Source of the DNA: a virus
Lineage: Duplodnaviria > Heunggongvirae > Uroviricota > Caudoviricetes
IMG/VR virus record: IMGVR_UViG_2563366852_000006
Span: 1 to 40,933 of that record
DNA: 40,933 nt
Direction: 5' to 3' (one strand)
Below are positions 11,233-12,208 of the stretch, piece by piece. Position 1 is the first letter of the stretch. Each line of letters begins with the position of its first letter. Under the pieces are notes generated by a model, which had not been told where the DNA came from, did no database searches, and saw only the letters and a program-made list of their open reading frames with translations. The position numbers were made by a program, and so were the translations under genes.

Positions 11233-11885
11233 TGAGTAATAAATATTGCCGGGCGCTGGTGGAGCTGCGGAACAAACCAGCCCATGAACTGAAGGAAGTG
11301 GGCGATCAGTGGCGCACGCCGGATAACATTTTCTGGGGAATTAACACCCTGTTTGGCCCGTTTGTCCTGGATCTGTTTACTGACGGTGATAACGCCAAAT
11401 GTGCCGCGTATTACACGGCGGAAGACAACGCGCTGGCGCATGACTGGTCAGAACGTCTTGCGGAGCTTAAAGGCGCTGCCTTTGGTAATCCCCCATACAG
11501 CCGCGCCAGTCAGCATGAGGGGCTATACATCACCGGCATGCGTTACATCATGAAGCATGCCAGTGCCATGCGTGATAAAGGCGGGCGCTATGTTTTCCTG
11601 ATCAAAGCTGCCACCAGCGAAGTGTGGTGGCCGGAAGATGCAGATCATATTGCTTTTATTCGCGGGCGTATTGGTTTTGAACTGCCTGCCTGGTTTATCC
11701 CGAAAGATGAGAAGCAGGTGCCGACAGGCGCTTTCTTCGCTGGTGCTATTGCTGTTTTCGACAAGACCTGGAAGGGACCGGCAATCAGCTACATCGGGCG
11801 CGATGAACTTGAGGCATGTGGTGAGGCGTTTCTGGCGCAGGTTCGCCAGCAGGCGGAAAAACTGGTCAGGGAGATGGCGGCATGA
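11232..11885 (+). CDS. Phage N6-adenine DNA methyltransferase (Dam-like)
   Basis: Catalytic NPPY motif (FGNPPYSR). Start chosen at MSNKYCRAL (11232), a TAATG stop-start overlap with the upstream gene. Confidence 0.8.
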   Translation: MSNKYCRALVELRNKPAHELKEVGDQWRTPDNIFWGINTLFGPFVLDLFTDGDNAKCAAYYTAEDNALAHDWSERLAELKGAAFGNPPYSRASQHEGLYITGMRYIMKHASAMRDKGGRYVFLIKAATSEVWWPEDADHIAFIRGRIGFELPAWFIPKDEKQVPTGAFFAGAIAVFDKTWKGPAISYIGRDELEACGEAFLAQVRQQAEKLVREMAA

Positions 11886-12208
11886 CGACGTTAACTCAAT
11901 GCCAGCAGCAGGTGCTGGATATGCTGATTTCTTATCAGAAAGAACGTGGCTTCCCGCCAACCAATCAGGAGGTGGCAACCATGCTGGGATACCGTTCAGT
12001 GAATGCAGCGGTGGAGCATCTTCGCGCACTGGAGAAAAAAGGCGTCATCACGATAAAGCGTGGTGTGGCCCGGGGCATCACGCTTCATACCGCGGTGAAG
12101 GACGACGACAGCGAGGCGGCCGGGATTATCCGCGCACTGCTTGCTGGTGAGGAAAACGCCAGGCTGCGTGCAGCCCACTGGTTACATGAGAGGGGGCTGA
12201 AAGTATGA
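11882..12208 (+). CDS. LexA N-terminal DNA-binding-domain protein lacking the S24 peptidase domain
   Basis: Aligns by eye along the LexA DNA-binding domain (LT..QQ.VLD.I......G.PPT..E.A..LG.RS.NAA.EHL.AL..KGVI.I..G.ARGI.L); only about 40 further residues follow and there is no Ser/Lys protease region. Confidence 0.7.
   Translation: MTTLTQCQQQVLDMLISYQKERGFPPTNQEVATMLGYRSVNAAVEHLRALEKKGVITIKRGVARGITLHTAVKDDDSEAAGIIRALLAGEENARLRAAHWLHERGLKV

Follow-up and report, generated by a model that had tools for sequence, protein, structure and literature searches.

A LexA DNA-binding-domain protein with a conserved helical tail in the nin-like region of enterobacterial prophages

A LexA-like gene in the early-right operon

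We analysed a 40,933-nucleotide stretch of tailed-phage DNA (IMG/VR record IMGVR_UViG_2563366852_000006), referred to here as the window. Positions 11882–12208 on its plus strand hold, from an ATG start, a gene for a 108-amino-acid protein that consists of the N-terminal domain of LexA followed by a short tail, as indicated by the open reading frame (ORF) call, Pfam, and PHROG 362. RefSeq names the product "LexA family transcriptional regulator", and the reading frame is a real gene rather than a chance ORF. Immediately upstream lies a phage Dam N6-adenine methyltransferase gene (PF05869; 11199–11885, +) and immediately downstream the gene for a RusA Holliday-junction resolvase (Pfam; 12205–12594, +). 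Each junction is an ATGA overlap of a stop and a start codon on the plus strand, at 11882–11885 between dam and the LexA-like gene and at 12205–12208 between the LexA-like gene and rusA, which suggests that the gene is translationally coupled to both neighbours. The initial annotation had assigned the gene to a nin-like region, and the gene order bears this out: replication, PerC, and dam genes precede it, and rusA, KilA-N, DUF968, and Q genes follow it. The PerC-family regulator (PF06069, E = 2.5e-8; yfdN-like) is encoded at 10744–11232 (+), just 5′ of dam, and together with the LexA-like gene makes up two small putative host-directed regulators in one block.

The operon that holds the LexA-like gene is controlled by the prophage repressor cI (7310–7984, −). 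As had been proposed, this repressor is of the S24 type, with a Peptidase_S24 match (E = 2e-26), an Ala-Gly site (VQAGAW), and GDSM and FKRL motifs. A consensus promoter scan of the plus strand from 9500 to 14799 found no promoter-like site, and hence no dedicated promoter for the LexA-like gene. Given the lack of a promoter of its own and the apparent coupling on both sides, the LexA-like protein should be a product of the early-right operon under cI control, appearing after induction or when a phage infects. The GenBank record of phage SfV carries an annotation of putative −35 and −10 elements 5′ of dam (L016, 760–786, corresponding approximately to 11140–11170 of the window), for which our consensus scan of the window found no counterpart; a real promoter there could allow dam, the LexA-like gene, and rusA a measure of expression independent of cI. 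Judging from gene content, the late genes of the prophage depend on the Q antiterminator.

Elsewhere in the window, PADLOC matches two genes between Q and the lysis cassette (14792–16406, −) to a candidate pair for anti-phage defence, PDC-M53B (E = 1.8e-54) and PDC-M53A (E = 1.9e-32); the 339-amino-acid protein of this pair has no Pfam domain. About 670 bp between a yfdP-like gene and cI (6642–7309) are without an annotated gene, as is the homologous gap in E. coli TL20. A 417-amino-acid ORF beside the integrase gene (1782–3035, +) matches nothing in Pfam or PADLOC; it is called hypothetical in the annotation of E. coli TL20 and, lying at the attachment-site end, may be a moron.

Winged helix, recognition helix, and C-terminal tail

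Residues 1–68 (11882–12085, +) form a LexA-type winged helix-turn-helix according to PF01726, AlphaFold2, and Foldseek. The LexA_DNA_bind profile (PF01726) matches with 69 bits (cut-off 23.7; E = 2.9e-19), with residues 1–65 aligning with profile positions 1–65 of 65. Searches of the PDB return the DNA-binding domain of E. coli LexA (phmmer, 1lea, E = 8.4e-16, residues 2–69) and the LexA–DNA complex (Foldseek, 3jso_B, rmsd 1.0 Å over 67 residues, 51% identity); Foldseek, too, matches the model to 1lea. The Pfam scan of the 108-amino-acid protein gave no match to S24 (PF00717); the protein is complete at residue 108, and the frame that follows encodes RusA. The first description of the protein, as the LexA N-terminal winged helix without the S24 autoprotease domain, therefore holds. 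Two AlphaFold2 models, built from 13 and 22 sequences (mean pLDDT 77 and 83, respectively), place helices at residues 6–22, 28–35, and 40–52 and wing strands at 56–58 and 66–68. The domain is followed by an acidic flexible linker (residues 69–75; 12086–12106, +), of which residues 71–75 have a pLDDT below 50 in both models. Similarity to LexA runs beyond the winged helix: NCBIfam TIGR00498, the lexA equivalog, scores 67.7 bits against a cut-off of 110.95 and is matched over profile positions 1–91 of 203, and hhalign aligns the family profile to LexA 1–87, comprising the winged helix, the linker, and the cleavage-site "AGE" (probability 99.6).

The recognition helix, SVNAAVEHLRALEK (residues 39–52; 11996–12037, +; assigned by alignment to LexA), is identical to LexA at nine of 12 positions, versus 46% identity over the remaining domain. 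LexA residues S39, N41, A42, E44, and E45 are reported as DNA contacts (PMC3091678), and the corresponding positions of the window protein hold S, N, A, V, and E, so that four of the five contacts are kept. Across an alignment of 22 family sequences, S39, K53, and the wing residues R64-G65-I66 are invariant and N41 is present in 21, and the LexA contact E44 is never retained. Moreover, E45 is substituted in five relatives (P0087, P0122, P0132, P0134, and P0164) and N41 in P0145. This pattern at positions 41, 44, and 45 suggests a specificity that has been drifting, not one that strictly mimics an unchanging operator of the host. The motif SPNAAAEH(L/V)KAL, which is identical to LexA at 10–11 of 12 positions, is nevertheless retained in three separate sublineages. 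Ancestral LexA-like specificity has thus probably been retained in some lineages and changed in others, as far as can be read from the alignment; all host-assignable relatives belong to Enterobacteriaceae, which share one SOS box.

Behind the disordered linker, residues 74–103 (12101–12190, +) are predicted to form a conserved two-helix hairpin (helices 74–87 and 93–103; AlphaFold2 and alignment) with a pLDDT of 86–88. A97 and L101 never vary in the 22-sequence alignment, L86, A93, and G105 hardly do, and positions 82, 83, 87, and 100 are hydrophobic throughout; this conservation extends to relatives of 38–48% identity. The hydrophobic faces of the tail helices are broader than a lone hairpin requires, and from the models we infer that the hairpin may be a dimerisation module, for example a minimal four-helix bundle. 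Pfam and structure searches found no S24 similarity in the tail. The N-terminal LUBAC-tethering motif of human HOIL-1L folds by pairing with a partner. This helical motif (8k6q, 5y3t) was all that a structure search with residues 76–108 (12107–12205) returned, at a non-significant E-value of 0.79.

The tail also bears on the origin of the family. Its "LLAGEE" aligns with the cleavage-site motif "VAAGEP" of LexA, which is cut between Ala84 and Gly85 under stimulation by RecA, and the proline that follows this motif is kept in some relatives (AEEP, ADTP, AELP). Because the profile alignment spans LexA 1–87 and some relatives keep the next proline, the family looks like a captured LexA 1–87 whose remaining C-terminus was turned into a helical hairpin. 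We doubt that the Ala-Gly of the tail is functional, since G89 is present in only 12 of the 22 family sequences and sits at the turn between the helices in the model. Set against E. coli LexA 1–87, the window protein thus has in common the winged-helix fold, S39, N41, A42, and E45, and the wing R64-G65-I66. It differs in having valine in place of E44, in lacking the S24 protease and dimerisation domain with Ser119 and Lys156, in ending in a two-helix hairpin, and in being phage-encoded and expressed from a cI-controlled operon.

Family distribution and genomic settings

The gene itself is not new: it is common and already widely annotated. PHROG 362 ("transcriptional repressor") matches the whole protein, tail included (E = 1.2e-58; residues 1–108 on profile positions 1–106 of 106). 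Close relatives (63–98% identity) are 106–108 amino acids long, come from E. coli, Citrobacter, Salmonella, and Hafnia, and fall into clusters with members in the thousands. Further full-length relatives, of 38–48% identity and mostly 104–135 amino acids in length, came from a profile search across 1.84 billion representatives, and in these the tail was matched too; the cluster names of these distant relatives are Cronobacter, Kosakonia, Enterobacter, Cedecea, Klebsiella, and Salmonella, and one relative is called at 165 amino acids. The gene is annotated in phages SfV (orf42), SfII, SfIV, mEp460, cdtI, and 1720a-02, in Stx2c phages, and in two Stx2a phages. Matches of at least 90% identity occur in 2233 of 5426 complete E. 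coli genomes (about 41%), and in 2223 E. coli genomes the match covers at least 80% of the gene length. In a spread sample of the 2233 genomes, rusA adjoins the gene in every full-length match listed. Pairwise pN/pS among five alleles from E. coli and Shigella phages ranges from 0.00 to 0.32, and the 68 residues of the winged helix show a single amino-acid change; the gene is under purifying selection. Full-text literature searches found no functional study of the enterobacterial LexA-like family.

Phages of many hosts frequently encode stand-alone LexA-domain proteins, and what is distinctive of the enterobacterial family is the combination of a conserved helical tail with a LexA-like recognition helix. 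Among the other proteins recovered, P0127, P0128, P0129, P0133, P0137, P0139, and P0140 each have a tandem pair of LexA_DNA_bind domains, lack an S24 domain, and are apparently single-chain pseudo-dimers of the LexA winged helix.

The genomic neighbourhoods of the family fall into two types. Type A comprises the window together with loci from Cronobacter (L005) and Enterobacter (L002–L004), L009 (encoding P0164, whose cluster has one member from Cedecea), mEp390 (L019), and L014 and L015. Every type A locus that extends into the immunity region (the window, L002–L005, L009, and L019) belongs to a lambdoid prophage with a cI of the S24 type; L014 and L015 are not long enough to include this region. 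The common order runs from replication and methylase genes through the LexA-like gene to rusA, then KilA-N or Ant where present, DUF968, and Q.

Type B is made up of the N-terminally extended relatives P0131, P0132, P0134, and P0145, a sister subfamily of 39–42% identity found in prophages of Klebsiella, Salmonella, and Cedecea/Enterobacter. In all four of its loci the LexA-like gene lies 440–760 bp downstream of a strong SOS box (21–27 bits). The box at 4560 of L007 (21.4 bits) is followed by an 82-amino-acid ORF and the LexA-like gene; that at 513 of L008 (27.4 bits) by dinI, a 75-amino-acid ORF, and the LexA-like gene; that at 5561 of L010 (26.4 bits) by a 75-amino-acid ORF and the LexA-like gene; and the tandem boxes at 2242 and 2258 of L012 (26.7 and 17.3 bits) by a RecA_C-like ORF, a 77-amino-acid ORF, and the LexA-like gene. 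The four loci share ancestry and count as one conserved arrangement, not as four independent events. A 66–67-amino-acid ORF sits between the LexA-like gene and rusA in type B, one Klebsiella locus has no rusA between the LexA-like gene and DUF968, and the repressor of L007 is a short HTH-only protein like those of the Gifsy phages.

Lemire and colleagues described the LexA-controlled promoter of Gifsy-2, which drives dinI, an antirepressor, and irsA, and the order of Gifsy-type operons as terminator, LexA box, dinI, gftA/gfoA, and irsA; they noted the conserved dinI–irsA region, without mention of a LexA-like occupant (PMC3121763). The type B promoter regions align with this Gifsy-2 promoter, and P0131, P0132, P0134, and P0145 fill the slot after the small ORF in the antirepressor position behind homologous SOS-box promoters. 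In Gifsy-2, by contrast, the same slot holds irsA (STM1020), a DUF1367 gene that is not LexA-like; IrsA of the Gifsy prophages was considered as a family member and rejected on this ground. The 66-amino-acid ORF that comes next in Gifsy-2 (STM1021.1n) is homologous to the corresponding ORFs of L007 and L008 (36–44% identity). Placement behind a terminator, promoter, and LexA box with dinI and a small antirepressor is found for L007, L008, L010, and L012 and not for the window gene, which lies in a cI-controlled PR operon without an SOS box.

Since the type B gene stands behind an SOS box, the LexA-like protein of type B phages would itself be made when LexA is cleaved. By gene order, this arrangement appears to link the family with the SOS circuit, and a protein that bound the box would exert negative feedback on its own operon. 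The linkage could, however, simply reflect control by host LexA of a cassette slot, the one that holds a DUF1367 gene in Gifsy-2.

Several further features were observed in these loci. The ORF that comes first behind the tandem SOS boxes of L012 (2310–2597) encodes 95 amino acids, matches PF21096 (RecA_C), and stands where the Klebsiella and Gifsy operons have dinI; its product may likewise be a small modulator of RecA. Additional SOS boxes lie after the lysozyme gene of L007 (9164–9183, 24.6 bits), 5′ of an N6/N4 methyltransferase gene in L010 (8739–8758, 20.4 bits), and close to the right end of Gifsy-2 (L011, 45544–45563, 26.4 bits).

Operators and candidate roles

We searched the window for sites that a LexA-like protein might bind. 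The SOS-box position weight matrix (PWM) was built from a set of E. coli boxes (weakest training box 12.8 bits), and as a control it recovered the published Gifsy-2 LexA box next to dinI at 23.7 bits (PMC3121763). It found no SOS box over the 40.9-kb window, where the best sites scored 10.9–11.2 bits versus a mean shuffle maximum of 11.5 bits, and none over the related type A loci. An exact CTGT-N8-ACAG occurs once (8970–8985; 0.5 expected), inside an Ash-family ORF and with a poor PWM score of 5.8. One-mismatch versions number 24 in the window versus 13.5 expected, with none convincing at a promoter position, and CTGT/ACAG palindromes at spacings of 0–20 remain at chance level. That selection has kept a LexA-like recognition helix in a phage with no site to match it suggests that the targets are to be sought elsewhere in the cell, and LexA-type targets outside the phage are, on sequence grounds, most likely.

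What such a protein might do there is suggested by work on LexA itself. LexA dimerises through its C-terminal domain (PMC8152094, PMC8565304). Its DNA-binding domain (DBD) has to dimerise to bind the operator, and fusing it to any partner that interacts is enough to bring back repression (PMC8152094); LexA(DBD) fusions of this kind are the basis of the LexA-based bacterial two-hybrid of Dmitrova et al. 1998 (PMC8152094). In these engineered fusions the LexA DBD and a heterologous dimeriser repress an SOS-type operator in a RecA-insensitive manner (PMC8152094), which is the architecture we propose for the window protein; they differ in being artificial, whereas the putative dimeriser of the window protein is a natural hairpin of 33 residues.

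We tentatively propose, with rather less than even confidence, that the protein is an uncleavable LexA surrogate, insensitive to RecA, by which CTGT-type operators are closed again in the course of lytic growth. It would be a DNA-binding protein derived from LexA (approximately residues 1–87), in which the hairpin replaces the S24 domain as dimeriser, and it would be made from the early-right operon only once cI has been inactivated or on infection. Its targets would be SOS operators of the CTGT type, whether those of the host or those of co-resident prophages, colicin plasmids, and toxin genes, so that LexA-controlled promoters would be shut again by an uncleavable surrogate while the LexA of the cell is being destroyed. 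The fold, domain architecture, conservation, selection, gene context, lack of SOS boxes in the window, and sister-subfamily linkage described above are observations; dimerisation through the tail, the DNA target, and repression are the steps that we infer from them. The replacements at contact positions 41, 44, and 45 within the family count against the surrogate reading, and the spacing of the half-sites would depend on the geometry of the putative dimer. The initial annotation had raised the idea of an uncleavable LexA mimic, which is compatible with the evidence, and the SOS-box operon context of type B makes the idea better founded than it was from a reading of the sequence alone.

In a more specific and more doubtful version, the protein would act as an "SOS reset" factor, a RecA-proof LexA surrogate made at induction that silences LexA-controlled promoters, so that the first-induced phage monopolises the cell; in type B it would in addition feed back on its own operon. 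Among its targets would be the SOS genes of the host and the toxins and colicins that SOS induces, but foremost the LexA-box antirepressor operons of competing Gifsy- or 186-type prophages. We consider this version rather unlikely.

The main rival to the surrogate reading, a substantial one even if we think it somewhat unlikely to be correct, is a phage-specific transcription factor with its own operator, in the phage or at particular host genes, and with no general effect on the SOS regulon. The precedent is gp6 of the Bacillus thuringiensis tectivirus GIL01, the sole characterised phage LexA-domain protein: a truncated LexA homologue whose winged HTH is described as closing with two strands, an extension of 14 residues, and which activates the late promoter P3 by binding GaCACAnnTGTGaC, a cognate site that overlaps the −35 element of this promoter. 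In line with such a role, residues of the recognition helix vary within the enterobacterial family, E44 is always replaced, and stand-alone LexA-domain proteins are as common in phages as noted above. However, gp6 belongs to a phage of another host phylum, has no close sequence relationship to the family, and is a late activator of changed specificity, whereas the enterobacterial proteins have a helical tail and a LexA-like recognition helix and late control in the window prophage rests with Q. The gp6-type site matches the window once with one mismatch (3283–3296, between the ORFs at 1782–3035 and 3512–3859), versus 1.7 such matches expected by chance, and no CTGT/ACAG palindrome at spacings of 0–20 is over-represented as an operator of the phage's own might be. 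Furthermore, the recognition helix is more LexA-like than its scaffold, and three sublineages keep SPNAAAEH(L/V)KAL.

A role outside transcription, as a DNA-binding accessory of RusA, the DUF968/HNH nuclease, or Dam that, for example, directs or restrains the resolvase, appears improbable to us. Linkage to rusA is near-constant and often ATGA-coupled, in all type A loci as well as in the listed full-length E. coli matches, and in type B loci only the 66–67-amino-acid ORF intervenes. Gene order in nin regions is, however, kept by modular exchange and needs no functional coupling, and the domain has the fold of a sequence-specific repressor, in which the recognition helix is conserved. In addition, RusA occurs elsewhere without a LexA-like gene, and the Klebsiella locus mentioned above has no rusA before DUF968. 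The DLP12 prophage of E. coli K-12, for example, has rusA but is not known to have the LexA-like gene.

The initial annotation had also suggested that the protein titrates LexA. Titration or poisoning of host LexA, through mixed dimers or competition by monomers, would raise SOS expression or speed induction, and the domain would indeed compete for the same half-sites if its specificity were kept. We give this reading very little weight because the C-terminal domain through which LexA dimerises is missing from the window protein, whose tail is without S24 similarity; moreover, the gene is expressed after cI inactivation, when LexA is already being cleaved. Finally, an N-terminal remnant of a split or frameshifted LexA/cI-type repressor, which had been named as the finding that would overturn the first interpretation, or a decaying pseudogene, is excluded: the TIGR00498 and hhalign alignments do reach LexA residues 87–91, including the cleavage-site "AGE", but the frame downstream is RusA (or, in type B, the 66–67-amino-acid ORF), relatives in eight genera from Escherichia to Klebsiella have the same short length (104–135 amino acids, one of 165) and a conserved tail of their own, the pN/pS of 0.00–0.32 speaks of purifying selection, and in 2223 E. 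coli genomes the match covers at least 80% of the gene.

What the family means for its hosts depends on which operators it occupies. If the protein has an operator of its own, it is an ordinary phage regulator. If, as the surrogate reading has it, SOS operators are occupied, about 41% of complete E. coli genomes would carry a switch that uncouples SOS expression from RecA and LexA once the prophage fires, and the carriers would include Stx2c phages, some Stx2a phages, and the serotype-converting phages of Shigella. The protein would then be a natural counterpart of the engineered LexA-domain two-hybrid fusions, and its action would matter for the induction of Shiga-toxin phages, for the way prophages compete in polylysogens, for SOS mutagenesis under antibiotics, and for virulence loci under LexA control.
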